Assembly (NCBI GenBank): GCA_951406725.2 | Contig: OX597826.1 | Coordinates: forward strand, 20,212,001 to 20,276,000 | DNA from: Octopus vulgaris | Taxonomy: Eukaryota | DNA: 64,000 bases | Reading direction: 5' to 3' | Shown here: piece after piece, positions 6,147 to 37,336 of the stretch | Layout of the letters: every line of letters starts with the position of its first letter | How positions within the stretch are numbered: the first letter of the stretch is position 1 | Notes under the pieces: generated by a model | The model's database searches: none | What the model was told of the DNA's origin: nothing | Seen by the model: only the letters and a program-made list of their open reading frames with translations | Translations under genes and position numbers: made by a program

Positions 6147-6230
6147 TTATCAACTTGTGTTGCAAGATTCCTGATATGAAATGGTGCATTGAAACAGACA
6201 TTGTTGTACTTTGGGATGGTCATTTTCTTT

Positions 6231-6590
6231 AGGCATAGGAGTGGCTTACTTACTAACCACATGGTTCCGGGTTCAGTCCCACTGCGTGGCACCTTGGGCA
6301 AGTGTCTTCTACTATAGCCTCGGGCCAACCAAACCGTTGTGAGTGGATTTGGTAGACGGAAATTGAAAGAAGCCCGTCGTGTATATGTATATATATGTTC
6401 CCCCAACATCGCTTGACAACCGATGCTGGTGTGTTTACGTCCTCGTAACTTGGTTCAGCAAAAGAGACCGATAGAATAAGTACTAGGCTTACAAAGAATA
6501 AGTCCTGGGGGCGATTTGTTCAACTAAAGGTGGTGCTCCGGCATGGCCACAGTCAAATGACTGAAACAACTAAAAGAGTAAAAGAGAGTA
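6231..6590 (+). mobile_element. tRNA-derived SINE, family 1 (octopus-type), near full length
   Basis: Head GGAGTGGC...GGTTCCGGGTTCAGTCCCACTGCGTGGCACCTTGGGCAAGTGTCTTCTACTATAGCC, internal TA/TG microsatellite, tail GACTGAAACAA..AAAAGAG. Related copies at about 4480-4825(-), 23315-23690(-), 27180-27425(-), 38021-38390(+), 46510-46885(+), 53963-54330(+). Confidence 0.85.
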
Positions 6591-6703
6591 CTATATATTT
6601 GTTCCTCACTTGTTCATTACTGTTCTTAACTCATGTCCATTGGCCAGAAATCTTTCGTCACACATCTGTATTTATTTAGCCAAAAAAAAAAAAATGACCA
6701 TCC

Positions 6704-27989: not shown

Positions 27990-29458
27990 GTAAGTTCACA
28001 CTTTAAAATATTCCACATTGTTTTGTGATTAAAATGTGTAATTAAGCAGTTTTTTTTATGTTTCATTTATGATTCATTTATTCGTTAAGGTCATGACTAA
28101 CAGACCATCACCTTAGAGACAACTGCTGTCAGCTCTTCCTTTGTGAACTTAAATATACTTCAGAGTAATATGTTGATTGTATCATCTCACCAATGTGCTG
28201 GTGGCTCATAAAAAGCTCCCACTACACTCTTGGAGTGGTTGGCATTAGGAAGGGCATTGAGCCATAGAAAACTTTCCATATCAGACTGGAGCCTGGTGCA
28301 GGTGACCAGTTTTCAGTCAGCACCATGGAAAGCGAACATTAAACGATGATGATGACAATGTGTGAAAACAGTTGTAGTTATGGGAAATAATGTCATTCAA
28401 TCTGTTTTCTCTTATCAGTTTCTTTATATACACACATACACACACATATATAGCACTCCCTGACTGGCTCCCGTGCTGGTGGCACGTAAAAAGCATTATC
28501 CAAACATGATCGATGCCAGGCCTGCTTGACTGGCACCTGTGCCAGTGACATGTAAAAAGCACCCACTACACTCTGAGTGGTTGGCGTTAGGAAGGGCATC
28601 CAGCTGTAGAAACTCTGCCAGATCAGATTGAAGCCTGGTGCAGCCGCTGGCTCTCCAGACCTCAGTCAAACCGTCCAACCCATGCCAGCATGGAAAACAG
28701 ACGTTAAACGATGATGATGAGTAAAGCTAGAAATATTCCTCTGTAAAGTTGATTAGTTTGTATGTTTTGTGGTATTTTCTTTGGTAATCTTTGCTCAGCA
28801 ATTGTCAACATAAGCTCCCTTTTATAATTTATTCTGGGTATTTATTGAGAGAAATAACATGTAAAGTTGTGGATATGCCTAAGCTGAAACTCTCCTCTGT
28901 TTGTCAGGCCTACATGTTTTTTGTAGGAATAATGTAACAGAGGGGGAGGAGGAGGGCTGCACCGTCACTCAGGCTCATTATGCTCATTATGGCTGAGCAG
29001 ACTGGAGCCATGTGCAACGAAGTGCAACACTCAACCACACAGTGTGCACTGCTTGGTCCATGATGACAACCGATGATTTTACGATCATGAGATGAACATC
29101 CTAATCTCCTAATCACTGGACCACACACACACACGTGTTGGGGCCACATAAAAAGTGTAGTGCCACATAAAAAGCACTTGGCACACTCTGTAAAGTGGTT
29201 GGCGTTGCGAAGGGCATCCAGCTGTAGAAACCAATCCAAAACAGACAATGGGACCAGGTGCAGTTCCTGTCAAACCATCCAACCCATGTCAGCATGGAAA
29301 ACAGACGTTAAATGATGATGATGATGGTGATGCACATATAGCAATACACATGCAACACATACTCACACACACACACACACAGAGTTATATATAAAAGTGA
29401 GATTAAGATGTGAACTGATTGATTTTCAATTGATTTAGTGAAACTTTGTATTTTGCAG

Positions 29459-29626
29459 GTCAATACTGCATGCCTGAATCTGGTGTGGAGCTGACCCCGA
29501 ATAAAAATCTTTTAACGACTGCAGAACTGATCCAAATCACTTCCCTGTTTGTTAATCAGGGCATTAAAAAAGTTCGTTTAACTGGAGGAGAGCCATTGAT
29601 TAGAAAAGATTTAATTAAAATTGTTG
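29459..29626 (+). CDS. MOCS1: MOCS1A exon 3
   Basis: ttttgcag| (C)[33 protein letters not shown] |gtgagt. Confidence 0.97.
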
Positions 29627-31181
29627 GTGAGTTTCTCTCTGTTATTGTTATTTAACCCTAGGACAGGCCTGATCCAACAGACATACAATCAAATGTTCTA
29701 TAACAGTTTGTTTTTTTTTTCTTTGCTGGCATAATGTACCTAGAAATGCATTATCTGATGTGTCCATCTCATTATTAAGACTCTAAGGTATGATAAGAGG
29801 ACAATTTGGTTGCTATTTCTAGCAAGTTGAGAAACCAAGTAGAGGTTTCTTTGTTAGTTTAAGGAACATGTTTTTTTTTTTTGCTTAAGATTGTTATTAA
29901 AAACCTTATCTGAATCCTGATATTTCTGAACACAATTCTGTTGTGGTTTTTGTAGTGCCAAGCCAGCTCTGATCCAGTAATTCTCTGGCTTAGGGATAGT
30001 CAACTGAATGACCAGGTGGGACCCACAAATCTGTTGCTTAAAATATATTTTGCTTTTATCTACCTGAGAACCATGCTAGACACATCAACACAATGAAAAA
30101 AAATGGTGGTGATGTTCTTTCTACTGTCTGTCCAGTATAGTTGTAGATTTTGGTGGTGGTCACAGTGGAGGTGGACATGCTAGACTTGGCCTGAATGCAA
30201 GAACATTTCTATATGGTCATTCAGCCAAGTTAGATTTACCTGTAAAATTTCAAAATATATTAAATAAATGTTAGGTATGGCAGGAAATGCAATTTGATGG
30301 TCATGGCTGGAATGTCTGTTGACTGATTTAAGTCTAATACGAACAGATGTATATACAGTCTTGTCATGTGTCACAGTACTTTTATATTTTGATAGGAGAG
30401 TACTCCTGTAATCAGAGAGCATGGTACTCTTCTATTCCAGCAATCAGTGCTATATGCACAATCTGTAAATGATTATTTCAGCTTATCCGGAAGGACTATA
30501 ATTATTATCATCATTATATGTGGCAAGCAGGCAGAATCATCGTTAGCATGTGTAGTGGCATTCCTTACAGGTTTACATTCTGAGTTCAAATTTTGATGAG
30601 GATGACTTTCATTCTTTCAGGGTCGATTAAATAAGTACCAGTTGAGCACTAGGGTCAATGTGATTGGCTAGCCCTCTCCCTCAAAATTCAGGCCTTGTGC
30701 CTATAGTAGAAAGGATTATTATTATTCAAAATTAGTGACACTGATTGTGAGGTTAAAGTGTTGGCTTTATGACCATAGAGTCATAAGTTCAAATCTTATG
30801 AGCATTTTGTTGTAACCTTGAGCAAGGTACCTGACTCTACTTGCTCCAGTTCACCTAACTGAACACAAAATAAATCAATTGATTGATTAACACATAGGAT
30901 GCACATTAGTTTGTACAAATAATAATAATTTCTCCAAAATATAAACCAGCCTCCACAAATATGGCAACACGAATAATGTAAGGTAACAATAAATATGACA
31001 AATAAACCTGTGACCATATTAGTGTGAATTTATTTACCAAAAATAGTTTGGAAATTGAGTTTGTGGTAAGAAACTGGTTTATTACTATATTCTATGTTTT
31101 ATTGGAATAAAGAAATGATTTTGAAAGAGTTTTTAATTCCTCAGGAATTTGATGTTTTTTTGTAATTCTTAAATATTTCAG

Positions 31182-31414
31182 AAGAACTTCATCTCCTGAA
31201 ACAATATGGTTTGGAATTTATTACTATGACAACCAATGGTGTGATTCTTCATCGAGTTGTGGAGAAGTTAAAAGAAGCTGGCTTAGATTCCCTGAATGTC
31301 AGTCTTGATAGTTTAATGCCACATAAGTTTGCTTTCATTACCAGAAGGAATTGTTTAGATAAAGTCTTAAAGAATATAGAGGGTGCTTTGGCAGCAGGAT
31401 TTTCTCCGTTAAAG
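31182..31414 (+). CDS. MOCS1: MOCS1A exon 4
   Basis: atttcag| EELHLLKQYGLEFITMTTNG..AGLDSLNVSLDSL..GFSPLK |gtaagg. Confidence 0.97.
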
Positions 31415-31924
31415 GTAAGGAAATGTCAATGCAGAATGTTTGAAATTTTTTCTTCCAAATTTAAAAAACAAATGTTTATGGCTTAGTAATAGCAGGAATG
31501 ACCATTTTAGTGATGGGGGCTCCTAGGCTGGCGGGGCAGTTTAATTCCAGTATTTGTGACAGAGTAGATTCTGCTAGAGACAGGTTGTGGCATTAAACTG
31601 GGCCAAAGATTTGGTTTGCTACCAAAGAATAGGTACAGGCCATATGATAAGCTTCAGCATAGTTTTCTTCTATTACAGTTCACTTGCAAGGCTTGTCTCA
31701 CCATGAGCTTATGATAACATGCACATAGTTAAACTGTTACACACACTAGAATTGAACCTGGTACCAAATGTTTGCCAAAGAACTTGCCCAACCATGCTTA
31801 AATTCATTATCACTTTAATTCCTCTATAAACTTAATTTATTAAAATAGTTCAGAGGGAAGCTTCTGTAGATACAGTGCTCGTAAACATATGAAATCTGTG
31901 AAATTTGTAGAGTTGTTACTTACC

Positions 31925-32381
31925 TTATTTACATTCGACAGATATTTGTCCTCATCTTTTTTGTTGTTAACACAATGTTTTGGCTGATATACCCTCCAGC
32001 CTTCATCAGGTGACTTGGGGAAATTTCAAACCTGGGTTCTCATTCCTAAGGTATTTTTTGATGTTATTATTATTATTCAGGTCACAACCTGGAATCGAAC
32101 TCGGAATCTTGGAGTTAGTAGCCCACGCTCTTAACCACTACGCCATATGCCTGTGGGCATAGTGGTTAAGAACGTGGGCTACTAACCTTAAGATTCCGAG
32201 TTCAATTCCAGGCAGTGACCTGAATAATAATAATATCAACAACATCGAAAAATACCTTAGGAATGAGAAGCCAAGTTTGAAATTTCCCCAAGACACCTGA
32301 AGAAGCCTGGAGGGTATATCAGCCAAAACATTGTGTTAACAACAAACAAGATGAGGACAAATATCTGTCAAATGTAAATAA
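31925..32381. mobile_element. Head-to-head inverted pair of tRNA-headed elements with Penelope-like tails (457-bp palindrome)
   Basis: Arms 31925-32144 and 32156-32381 are reverse complements with an 11-nt spacer. Each has A-box GGCRTAGTGG, B-box GTTC(G/A)ATTCC, a (TAA)n tract and CTGA(T/A)GAAG..CAGCC.AAAC. A further fragment lies at about 43780-43885. Confidence 0.9.
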
Positions 32382-33238
32382 TGTGAATAATGTACATAAT
32401 TCCTCATCTCTTAGATATAGAACTATATTGTTAGAGTTATGAGAGAGAGAGAGAGTTCACTTGATGCTCCACCAATTCTGTCAATCCACCACCCTGGATG
32501 AACGTATACCATGTCTGCCATTGGTGGATGGTAGTAGAGGAAGAAACGGGAAGTGAAGTTGGGTCTAAAAAGTATTGAGTTTCAAAAACAAGGTGAAAGT
32601 GGAATGGTAAGATGCCATGATATCAGACTTGTTCCATTCTGGTCACAATTGAACTCTAAGAATAAAGGATTATAGATAACTTATTTTCTTAGTGGCTTTG
32701 ATCCCTAGCCTGTGGCCATCCTTTGATCCCTAGTCTGTGGCCATCCTGGGGCACCATTTTGAAGAGTTTTTAGTCAATCATATCAACCTTAATATTTTAT
32801 CAATCTCGTTAATTGTAAACCATTAAGTTATAGGAAAGCCTGCATGTGGTGGCTTGACTTTCTCGAAACAGCAGCCAAATCCCCTTCCTCAAATCGTATC
32901 CTACAATTTAAAAAAAATATTTTGAGTAATGTAGTCATTGATACACTTTCTGAAAAGATGGGATGGCCAAGATTGGCTTGGAGTTAAACCCATCACTACA
33001 ATAACGAGTTTTAAGAATTGTAAACACAAGCACTGATGCTAAAACACACACACACACACACACATTCACTTCTGCACAGTTTCCATCTGCCAAATGGCAC
33101 TGACAAGGTAATGGTCAAACCCTAGGCCACAATAGAAGACGCATGGTGGGATTGAACCGATAATCATGTCATTGTGAAACAAACTTCTTCACCGCATGGC
33201 TGTAACCGATTTGATTTTTCTGTTCTAAATCTTTGCAG

Positions 33239-35246: not shown

Positions 35247-35399
35247 AATTTAGACGTACGATTTATAGAGTACATGCCTTTTCAAGACAACAAATGGAAT
35301 TTGAAGAAAATGGTTCCTTACAAAGACATGTTGGAAATTATTAAAAGAAAATGGCCAAACATATCAAAAATTAAAGATAAACCTAATGATACATCAAAG
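35247..35399 (+). CDS. MOCS1: MOCS1A exon 6
   Basis: tttcag| NLDVRFIEYMPFQDNKWNLKKMVPYKDML..NDTSK |gtatgt. Confidence 0.97.
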
Positions 35400-36364
35400 G
35401 TATGTTGAAAACCTATTCCTGGATTTTGATGTCTTTTACAATCAGGAGAATTTGGTTCTCAGTTATGTTGGTATTTTTGTAAAAGTTTACCATATTTTGT
35501 TTTTATTTTATATCAGAATTGGTGAACAATGGTTCCATTGGTTCCAAGTTTTCAATAGACTGATCATTGGTTCACTATTTATGATAGTGTGAAAGGGGAG
35601 TTTCTGTAACTCAGTGCAGACCAAACATTTCCAGGAACTTACTTAAAAAGCAACAGTTTTTCAGTTTCTCATTGATGTTCCGTCAATATAATCAATATAG
35701 ATCCTTGAAAGATATATGTGCACAGACGCACACACACACACCTGTGTTGTATGGCCCTAATAACTAGGCCATGTATGATCATAAAGTTGTAGGTTTGATA
35801 CCTGAACTGGATGGTGCCTTTTATCCTTGAGGAAGGCAATTCATTTCTTATTACTCCAGTCTACTCAACTAACAATGGGTACCAACCAAGTTGCTGGTAC
35901 AGCTCTGTTCCTCCTGCAAAATTTTGGATGTTCTGTAGGGTCAAAGAACAGCCAAAAAGATGTCTTCTCTTGACTCCACAGGCACCTAAAACTATTAGCA
36001 AAAGCATGGAACCATACTTGGGAGACACATACATGGTTTATACACACACACACAATGGGCTTCCACATAGTTTCCCTCCACTAGACCCCTTCATGACCAC
36101 ATAGTCATGTTGGCATCTATGTCTTTGTTTATTTTATTATTATTTTTAATTTTTAGAGATAATTTTACTGGTTTTACATTAAAAATTAGTTCACTTTTTT
36201 TCATTGCCTGCTTACATAGTTTATTGTTAGTTGTTGTAGTATGTTCACAACTTATTGGACTTTTAAATTCATTTTCCTATTATTTAAAAAAGAAACGTAT
36301 GTTACAAAGAAAATAATTTTTCCCCGTAAAATGTTAAGACTATTGTTTTCTTTTTTCTTTTAAG

Positions 36365-36475
36365 GCCTTCAAAATTCCTGGATTTGAAGGTCAAATAGGT
36401 TTTATTACTTCCATGTCTAACCATTTCTGTGGCTCCTGTAATCGTTTAAGACTTACGGCCAATGGAAACCTCAAG
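36365..36475 (+). CDS. MOCS1: MOCS1A exon 7
   Basis: tttaag| [37 protein letters not shown] |gtatc; CxxC of the C-terminal [4Fe-4S] cluster. Confidence 0.97.
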
Positions 36476-37215
36476 GTATCAACTTTATTTCTTTTATTCC
36501 TTCTTTTTATTCCGCCAGCTCGTGGCCATGCTGGGGCATCATTTTGAAGGGTTTTAGTCAATTACAATACTTAACTCATTTTATCCATTCCTATTTATCG
36601 AACGGATAGGTTTGTCTATTGAATTACGTCACCTAAGAGTTACCTCCCCTGAAAAAGTAAATCTGACAACAAACGTTCTTTTCTATTTTTAGGGACTTTA
36701 AGGAATAATTAACTTTATTTTGTCTGTTTTATTCAATTTTTCAACACTGGGATAGTTGTTGTTTCTATATATATATATATACATGTGTTTTGTGTCTCCT
36801 TACCTTGACATTGTGTGTGATAATTATAAAATGATTGTCACTATCATTCGGTTCCAATATTCTTCGAGAACGTCTAGCCACGAGGAAATGTTACTTTGCT
36901 TGGAAACAAGGAATGGTCTCTGATGGCTAATAAAACCAGTGAGAAATGGTGACCTGTTGCATGAAGGGTTGCTATAGAACCACTTTCTAGATTGTTGGGA
37001 AAATGGTGAGGCAGCAAAACCTAAGATAAGAGGGAATGTCACAGATAGTAATTTGACCAAAGAATCAACAGATGTCTGCCCAAGATGCAAATGAGGTCTG
37101 GATGGTATGAACATGATTGTAAAAGTGAGGTCTGCATCTTTGAGTTAAATTAGGTGATGTTTTGCATGAAATATGTTTAAATAAAAATTGTTGTTAACCT
37201 ATTTCTAACATTCAG

Positions 37216-37336
37216 GTTTGTCTTTTTGGAAATGAAGAAATATCTTTGAAAGACATGATTCGAAAAAATGCTTCTGATGAAGAAATCCTAAAGCATATAG
37301 AATTTGCTGTGAAACGGAAGCATAAACAACATGCTG
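37216..37336 (+). CDS. MOCS1: MOCS1A exon 8
   Basis: ttcag| VCLFGNEEISLKDMIRKNASDEEILKHIEFAVKRKHKQHA |gtgagt. Confidence 0.97.

Follow-up and report, generated by a model that had tools for sequence, protein, structure and literature searches.

We analyzed a 64,000-nucleotide stretch of the Octopus vulgaris genome (contig OX597826.1 of assembly GCA_951406725.2, positions 20,212,001 to 20,276,000 of the forward strand; hereafter the window), in which two copies of a short repeat face each other inside an intron. This palindrome probably arose in one insertion event, as two head-to-head copies of a tRNA-headed short interspersed element (SINE) with a Penelope-type hammerhead motif. The enzymes most likely to have made it are the reverse transcriptase and the GIY-YIG nuclease of a Penelope-like element (PLE). 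We infer the Penelope partnership from the scars left by insertion and from the type of the motif, not from a shared tail.

An insertion unit of two facing copies

A repeat search of the window resolved the palindrome into two sets of inverted arms. The first spans 162 nt on each side (31916-32077 and 32229-32390, 91% complementary), and the inner one spans 87 nt (32058-32144 and 32156-32242, 89% complementary), with its members 11 nt apart. Combined, the arms run from 31916 to 32144 and from 32156 to 32390, that is, two copies of ~230 nt each, placed head to head around an 11-nt spacer as the initial annotation had described, and 89% identical when aligned over unit positions 1-235. From the center outward, each arm consists of a tRNA-like head, a (TAA)n tract, a body that contains the hammerhead-like stretch, and a set of 9-base A/T-rich units. 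A ~30-nt tail (32395-32424) extends the right arm only, to about 32424-32426, and is absent from the left arm. Outside the whole structure we found, by reading, a 12-nt direct repeat (31903-31914 and 32427-32438) with 10 of 12 positions identical. Because of the right-arm tail and of this target duplication outside the entire structure, we place the insertion unit at about 31916-32426; the extent first proposed, 31925-32381, was too short and lacked the one-sided tail.

Folded as RNA, the unit 31916-32426 is predicted to form one near-continuous hairpin of -340.5 kcal/mol. None of 100 shuffles of the same letters folds equally well (mean -109.7 kcal/mol, z -33), and the long double-stranded RNA that had been proposed for this site is thus predicted to be very stable. 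The parts of the insertion, in window coordinates, are as follows:

31903-31914, no strand: left copy of the target-site duplication, 10 of 12 positions identical to 32427-32438.
31916-32155, minus strand: left arm, a full-length SINE copy with a short 3' end and no tail, including an 11-nt 5' leader (32145-32155).
31969-32014, minus strand: decayed minimal hammerhead of the left arm, with the 3-9 box intact and A at both G12 and G16.2.
31981 and 31976, minus strand: the G12 and G16.2 sites of the left arm, T on the plus strand.
32078-32144, minus strand: tRNA-like head of the left arm, placed by an alignment of 36 copies, with A-box-like and B-box-like stretches found by reading.
32156-32220, plus strand: tRNA-like head of the right arm, with a B-box-like stretch at 32199-32209.
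32221-32243, plus strand: (TAA)n-type microsatellite at the junction of head and body, of a length that varies among family copies.
32292-32337, plus strand: decayed minimal hammerhead of the right arm, with G10.2 changed (32306) and A at both G12 (32325) and G16.2 (32330).
32338-32394, plus strand: segment 3' of the predicted cleavage site, ending in the 9-base A/T-rich units; short-tailed arms stop here.
32395-32426, plus strand: one-sided 3' tail of ~30 nt, on the right arm only, a tail common to many family copies.
32427-32438, no strand: right copy of the target-site duplication, 10 of 12 positions identical to 31903-31914.

The same unit recurs throughout the genome. Searched with the right arm, the 2.8-Gb assembly yielded 3381 first-look candidates, and the 40 that were scored are all near full length at 87-92% identity. 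A 28-base word from the body has 5229 exact matches (2564 forward and 2665 reverse; its reversed control has none), which makes the family at least 5229 copies strong. The word is present 18 times for 41 copies in similarity-ranked loci, and the family therefore numbers roughly 12,000 copies. A 23-base word from the head has 756 exact matches genome-wide. At 28 of 30 loci anchored on the head, the ~190-nt body follows directly after the (TAA)n tract (of the remaining two, one carries an insertion within the tract and the other is a head alone), which identifies head and body as parts of a single element. The 5' end of the family is defined, lying at the tRNA-like start or a few bases upstream of it. 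The order of parts is constant (head, (TAA)n tract, body with the hammerhead motif, 9-base repeats, tail) and amounts to a unit of roughly 270 nt. The tail has no poly-A, and the 9-base unit just before it is the sole simple repeat there. The unit displays the features of a SINE, being short, non-coding (it contains no reverse transcriptase or GIY-YIG frame), present in high copy number and flanked by target duplications.

The (TAA)n tract differs in length between copies and in some of them contains secondary insertions of 234 to 1421 nt (L062, 1556-2016; L063, 1096-1329; L068, 1556-2043; L075, 1556-2976; L080, 2454-2989; L085, 1556-2129, all in locus coordinates). The inserts of L063 and L075 belong to one family (91% alike over 198 nt) and those of L080 and L085 to another (96.5% alike over 430 nt). 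By eye, stretches without a stop in the inserts of L068 (146 residues) and L075 (263 residues) resemble the end of ORF2 of a long interspersed element (LINE). Other retroelements seem to use the microsatellite inside the SINE as a landing site.

How the copies are arranged was read from three samples: 28 similarity-ranked loci, the first 30 places of the body word (26 distinct) and the first 30 places of the head word (29 distinct). We called a locus a dimer if a minus-strand and a plus-strand piece lie within 1.6 kb of each other and both reach unit position 200. By this fixed rule, 39 of the 55 loci in the similarity-ranked and body-word samples, the window included, are dimers. Heads-in pairs occupy 20 of the 26 body-anchored and 21 of the 29 head-anchored places, and solo arms occupy the other 6 and 8. 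The close pairs among the first 100 listed body-word places, counted by reading, comprise 12 in minus/plus order, none in plus/minus order and one on the same strand. One arm is often shortened at the center, by widely differing amounts, with starts at unit positions 25, 35, 105, 125, 167, 180, 187 and 201 among others, and in every truncated pair of the body-word sample the 3' ends point outward. The tail sits on exactly one arm in 34 of the 39 dimers, on both arms in one, and on neither in four.

The duplications, too, belong to the pair. A flanking duplication score of 9 or more was reached by 23 of the 39 dimers, compared with 6 of 195 control pairings in which the left flank of one locus was matched with the right flank of another; at a score of 11 or more the counts were 16 of 39 and 1 of 195. 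The duplications abut the outer ends of the whole pair and are about 10 to 14 bp long, and the 16 dimers without a clear one include old, decayed copies and imprecise BLAST ends. The proposal that the element inserts as an inverted dimer is thus borne out by the 39 dimeric loci, with one target duplication around each pair. Two odd partial tandems, L076 and L087, stand apart in the body-word sample.

Two independent SINE insertions that came to lie side by side by chance would be an extremely improbable source of such pairs. Copies occur only about once per 200 kb, and this density rules out chance adjacency in the 39 of 55 loci; in addition, one duplication surrounds the whole pair with none around each arm, and the orientation is heads-in by 12 to 0. 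The observation that favors independent insertion is that the arms of a pair are no closer to each other than unrelated copies. At non-CpG sites they diverge by 5.15%, compared with 5.50% between loci and 2.85% from copy to majority, and 351 of 2000 random sets of unrelated pairs have a mean as low as the within-pair mean. Because the history of the family is star-like, this comparison cannot show joint birth, and the divergence fits two arms that were identical at insertion and then decayed independently.

A fold-back or miniature inverted-repeat transposable element (MITE)-type DNA transposon, with long terminal inverted repeats and cut and pasted as a palindrome, would explain the 475-bp near-perfect inverted repeat as well as the flanking duplications. 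DNA transposon families give duplications of fixed length, whereas the length observed here varies from about 10 to 14 bp. The unequal ends with a tail on one side, the central truncation of one arm by widely differing amounts and the common solo arms (6/26 and 8/29) also speak against such a transposon, and we consider it a very improbable source.

Hammerhead motif and tRNA-like head

Both hammerhead stretches lie where they were first located, at 32292-32337 on the plus strand and at 31969-32014 on the minus strand. Across 83 copies of the family, the majority letters restore both core boxes (3-9 and 12-14). Each column of the 3-9 box is kept in 80-83 of the 83 copies, except for position 7, which is free. 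G12 is found in 47 copies (A in 33) and G16.2 in 41 (A in 32); both are CpG sites, and the two CpG restorations that had been predicted from the window alone therefore agree with the family majority. The majority letters form a helix I of 5 bp and a helix II of 6 bp, which is closed by G10.1-C11.1 and bears an 8-base loop, and one extra base follows position 9. There is no helix III; the stretch 15.1-16.1 consists of four self-complementary bases through which two RNAs could pair, and cleavage is predicted after position 17. The motif is fully intact in 7 of the 83 copies. A relaxed descriptor that we wrote for it matches 52 sites across the 529,910 bases of loci that were fetched, and 49 of these sites belong to the SINE family; it matches none in the 64-kb window or in 20 shuffles of the window. 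Outside CpG sites the core is slightly better conserved, with 12 of 815 positions changed, than the flanks (132 of 4720) or the helices (58 of 1713); these are small numbers.

These properties resemble those of the minimal hammerheads in PLEs. In the excerpted text of Cervera and de la Pena 2014 (PMC4209133), four traits are listed that came out in the PLE motifs in addition to those of the search descriptor: a base between positions 9 and 10.1, a G10.1-C11.1 pair, a palindromic 15.2-16.2 stretch and cross-family covariation. Helix I measures 4-5 bp in these motifs, and helix II is large. Three of the four traits and the helix sizes are present in the SINE majority; helix II has 6 bp both in the SINE and in D. 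virilis, compared with 7-8 bp in the S. mansoni families. The same excerpt reports paired minimal hammerheads 100-700 bp apart on opposite strands, and many single copies. The PLE motifs that it describes sit in pseudo-long terminal repeats (pLTRs), whereas in the SINE the motif is preceded by a tRNA-like head and a (TAA)n tract, with no coding partner in the sampled loci.

The copies in the window have decayed. Both have A at position 12 and at position 16.2, and the right copy is also changed at 10.2. Because G12 is lost, both would be dead as ribozymes, as the initial annotation had supposed from the sequence. Logan contigs from four runs guessed to be RNA, placed at 90% likeness, stem from other copies of the family: they carry the majority letter at 32306, 32325 and 32330, and in 4 of 4 runs they diverge at 32424. 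Because of this origin, the differences between contigs and window over the repeat are family letters, not editing. The motif had also been taken for a self-cleaving 3' end. Rather, the predicted cleavage site lies ~55 nt (left arm) to 90 nt (right arm of the window) inside the inserted copy, and the part downstream of it is kept in all copies. Since that part is kept, the motif is not a 3' end and the inserted template was not cut there.

Other hammerhead-like sequences came to light beside the SINE motif. In a search for the motif in foreign context, 8 of 35 matches share an identical junction directly before the 3-9 box, which suggests that one subfamily has lost the 5' strand of helix I through an internal deletion. 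A second hammerhead family (L168, L169 and L172, at ~1501-1608 of each locus) matches Rfam RF00163 at 34.2-35.6 bits. It has a ~70-nt insert in helix II and a six-base self-complementary loop 3, and in L168 an inverted piece of the motif lies just upstream. As a candidate relative of the SINE it was rejected, as the two share no similarity beyond the core and their local scores of 20-21 equal the shuffled means. Finally, the relaxed descriptor alone detected a compact motif in L112 (94-136, plus strand) that resembles a type I hammerhead and has a self-complementary loop 3; this motif has no relation to the SINE.

As read from the alignment, full copies begin at the would-be position 1 of a tRNA, and a leader of 7 bases often precedes it. 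The A-box-like and T-arm stretches, identified by reading against what we take to be the box consensus, are collinear with a tRNA, and a pairing D stem is kept in one subfamily. From its letters, the head is a putative polymerase III head derived from a tRNA.

The 7-base leader precedes the tRNA-like start in many copies, including solo ones such as L009, L017 and L024, which have no inverted partner. It is the reverse complement of the first bases of the unit. Such a leader would be expected if the master copy were a heads-in pair whose transcription started a few bases inside the partner arm.

Penelope-like elements and other candidate machineries

The pairs share their insertion scars with PLEs. 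As excerpted, Craig et al. 2021 (PMC8557442) describe PLE insertions in which a 5'-truncated copy lies inverted at the 5' end and a tail of 30-40 bp is often confined to one end. Common to those insertion units and the SINE are the inverted 5'-truncated copy, the flanking inverted repeats and the one-ended tail. The SINE differs from them in its lack of a reverse transcriptase or GIY-YIG frame, in the rarity of pLTR tandems, and in showing no microsatellite bias in 39 flanks. According to the same excerpt, PLE groups without hammerheads also make inverted insertions, and the hammerhead is therefore not needed for pairing; it was probably inherited from the terminal repeat of a PLE.

A mechanism that would produce the observed structure can be outlined from these scars. 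Polymerase III would transcribe the unit from its head, and the PLE nuclease would make staggered nicks in the target. One 3' OH would prime at the very end of the RNA and give rise to the long-tailed arm. The 3' OH of the other strand would prime on a second template, in the 9-base repeats ~35 nt further in, and give rise to the short-tailed arm. The two cDNAs would then grow toward each other and be joined at their heads where they meet. The geometry of two-sided priming would by itself account for the heads-in order seen in the pairs.

We searched the genome for an autonomous element that could have supplied the enzymes. GIY-YIG gave 6136 first-look candidates and 148 scored matches. The genome contains many endonuclease-bearing PLEs, some with open frames of 781 aa that read as a reverse transcriptase with a C-terminal GIY-YIG domain; the family with the 781-aa frame looks young, as the open frame is kept in many copies. 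A nhmmer profile built from 36 SINE copies, which as a control has 78 matches in the family's own loci, gave against the PLE loci only weak matches to the head and microsatellite part (E 0.017 to 5.6). By our descriptor the PLE loci contain no hammerhead, save one doubtful relaxed match in L042. Genome-wide searches for family words after non-family letters returned 35 matches for the hammerhead, 17 for the body, 21 for the segment after the hammerhead and 6 for the tail, and the matched strings, judged from the strings alone, look mostly like deletion variants or pair junctions. A looser hammerhead pattern has 373 matches; all 100 that were listed are the SINE motif, and the 30 first loci mapped to the SINE family.

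In L091 (G000:C16:20833500-20843400), a locus of the 781-aa PLE family, 456-bp terminal repeats at 1430-1885 and 6217-6672 are 99.3% alike and lie in (TA)n. They contain no hammerhead by our descriptor.

Several results weigh against a Penelope partnership. Neither body nor tail has a match in 30 GIY-YIG loci and two 9.9-kb PLE copies (blastn with word size 7, and nhmmer), and no autonomous PLE that shares the tail was found in 32 PLE loci of the 6136 candidates and in five genome-wide pattern searches. Partial tandems, a mark of PLE pLTRs, are rare (1 same-strand pair among the 13 close pairs of the first 100 listed body-word places), and the flanks of the 39 dimers show no bias toward microsatellite targets. 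The Rfam hammerhead models have no match in the window (E<=10), in 20 loci (E<=1) or in one intact copy (E<=10). The RF00163 model includes a helix III hairpin that is absent from the SINE motif; the Rfam type I model does match six other sites in the genome. Of 881 helix cells, 2 are changed on both sides, 26 have a change on one side that leaves the pair intact, and 39 no longer pair; because copies of one master decay neutrally, such within-family counts say little either way. Finally, no tRNA was called by ARAGORN in the window, or by the Rfam tRNA model in the window, 20 loci and one intact copy.

The claims made at the outset are accordingly upheld in part. The minimal hammerhead of the Penelope kind is supported by the majority boxes, the helices and the 15.1-16.1 stretch, but not by an Rfam match or by covariation within the family. 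The putative polymerase III tRNA-like head is read from box-like stretches, but no tRNA model calls it. As for a parasite of Penelope machinery, the insertion scars and the motif type agree with it, whereas the tail has no counterpart in the sampled PLEs, a result that the initial annotation had itself named as contrary to its proposal. The PLE partner may be extinct.

We considered whether the unit is instead the pLTR of a protein-coding PLE, with truncated ends placed back to back and the tRNA-like stretch serving as the promoter of that element. Cervera and de la Pena 2014 (PMC4209133, as excerpted) regard most single minimal hammerheads as probably truncated PLEs, and our partner search covered 32 PLE loci of the 6136 first-look GIY-YIG candidates, both of which leave room for this origin. 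In the sampled copies, the same ~190-nt body directly follows the (TAA)n tract at 28 of 30 head-anchored loci, and body or tail is attached to a coding region in none of 55. Family words occur in other contexts 6 to 35 times, compared with 5229 matches for the body word, and same-strand pairs ~3 kb apart, as expected of a pLTR-ORF-pLTR arrangement, were not seen among the 100 listed places. We therefore rate a pLTR origin as distinctly unlikely.

An ordinary tRNA SINE that depends on a LINE, with a hammerhead that is a fossil or a coincidence and pairs that are an accident akin to twin priming, is likewise unlikely. This explanation gains from the absence of a PLE partner in the sampled loci, of an Rfam match and of covariation within the family, and from the LINE-like fragments inside the (TAA)n tract of some copies. 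Twin priming leads to an inversion within one copy, not to two copies that each have their own 3' end, and it would not give the separate 3' ends of the pairs. Moreover, the tail has no poly-A, and the PLE-specific traits of the hammerhead are not needed by any chance motif. Two traits described for PLEs in the excerpted PMC8557442 also speak against it: a tail of about 35 nt on one side only, present in 34 of the 39 pairs, and the heads-in rule, followed by 12 pairs to 0.

Single components of the element are known from other systems. In Schistosoma mansoni, 2342 of 2368 tRNA-Gln-like predictions were classed as SINEs similar to Sm-alpha, and Sm-alpha and Sj-alpha are cited as hammerhead-bearing SINE-like elements (PMC2770079, in excerpt). 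Like the octopus SINE, these Schistosoma elements are short, non-coding and of high copy number, and combine a tRNA-derived or tRNA-like part with a hammerhead motif. Compared by description, their hammerhead is a canonical type I that searches of the Rfam type detect, whereas the SINE motif lacks helix III and is Rfam-negative, and the heads-in pair with a one-sided tail is a trait of the SINE that is absent from the excerpted description of Sm-alpha and Sj-alpha (PMC2770079). Animal non-LTR retrozymes have been proposed to be non-autonomous PLE derivatives (Li, Clavereau and Pollet 2026 preprint, 10.64898/2026.07.22.740005, in excerpt). They too are short non-coding hammerhead repeats proposed to use PLE enzymes. 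They form tandem arrays that would move by way of circular RNA, whereas the SINE is dispersed and heads-in (1 same-strand versus 12 inverted pairs) and has a tRNA-like head; the word tRNA is absent from the excerpted preprint text. Head-to-tail tandem arrays of the retrozyme kind were not found among the listed body-word places and the sampled loci.

For PLEs themselves, the excerpted PMC8557442 reports non-autonomous relatives in the algal Chlamys group only, without a tRNA head. A 2026 repeat annotation of Octopus vulgaris assigns 11.6% of the genome to SINEs, mostly unclassified, and the excerpted text does not mention hammerheads (PMC13282606). A full-text literature search, with Repbase, Dfam and supplements outside its scope, returned no title or abstract that describes a SINE with both a tRNA head and an insertion signature of the PLE type. 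The family is best filed as a combination of known parts. Whether it amounts to more, namely a previously undescribed class of SINE in which a polymerase III tRNA head is joined to a ribozyme-bearing 3' module of a PLE and copied by PLE enzymes as heads-in pairs, is a tentative proposal to which we give somewhat less than even weight.

Host gene and biological meaning

Domain matches place the pair in an intron of a gene of the MoaA/MOCS1A type on the plus strand, in agreement with the MOCS1 intron first named. Radical_SAM matches lie at 29434-29652 and 31166-31483 and Mob_synth_C matches at 35253-35399, 36362-36475 and 37207-37335, all on the plus strand, and the pair is located between the exon with the Radical_SAM match at 31166-31483 and the one with the first Mob_synth_C match, at 35253-35399. 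The window also contains, some 270 nt beyond the right end of the insertion, a 25-nt unit in two tandem copies (32696-32745, 96% alike). The single copy in the window is in itself ordinary and dead, and the pair could matter solely as a predicted ~230-bp hairpin in the pre-mRNA of this gene.

The wider meaning concerns the family. SINEs are textbook parasites of LINEs. If the Penelope attribution is true, a SINE that uses Penelope-type enzymes would be a second kind of partnership, and the first between a SINE and a PLE, with about ten thousand copies. It would join the tRNA-headed hammerhead repeats of the Sm-alpha type, the minimal hammerheads of PLEs and the retrozymes, which have so far been described apart. 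Its thousands of copies, each of which would record two priming sites, a tail and a target duplication, would offer a short and very abundant substrate for the study of how PLEs, which are poorly understood, integrate.

For annotation, such pairs are easily mistaken for MITEs or for two SINEs. Part of the unclassified SINE fraction of the octopus genome could consist of such elements, and octopus introns would then be seeded with long hairpins. For the host, each intronic pair is a predicted ~230-bp hairpin on which RNA editing or RNA interference would be likely to act.

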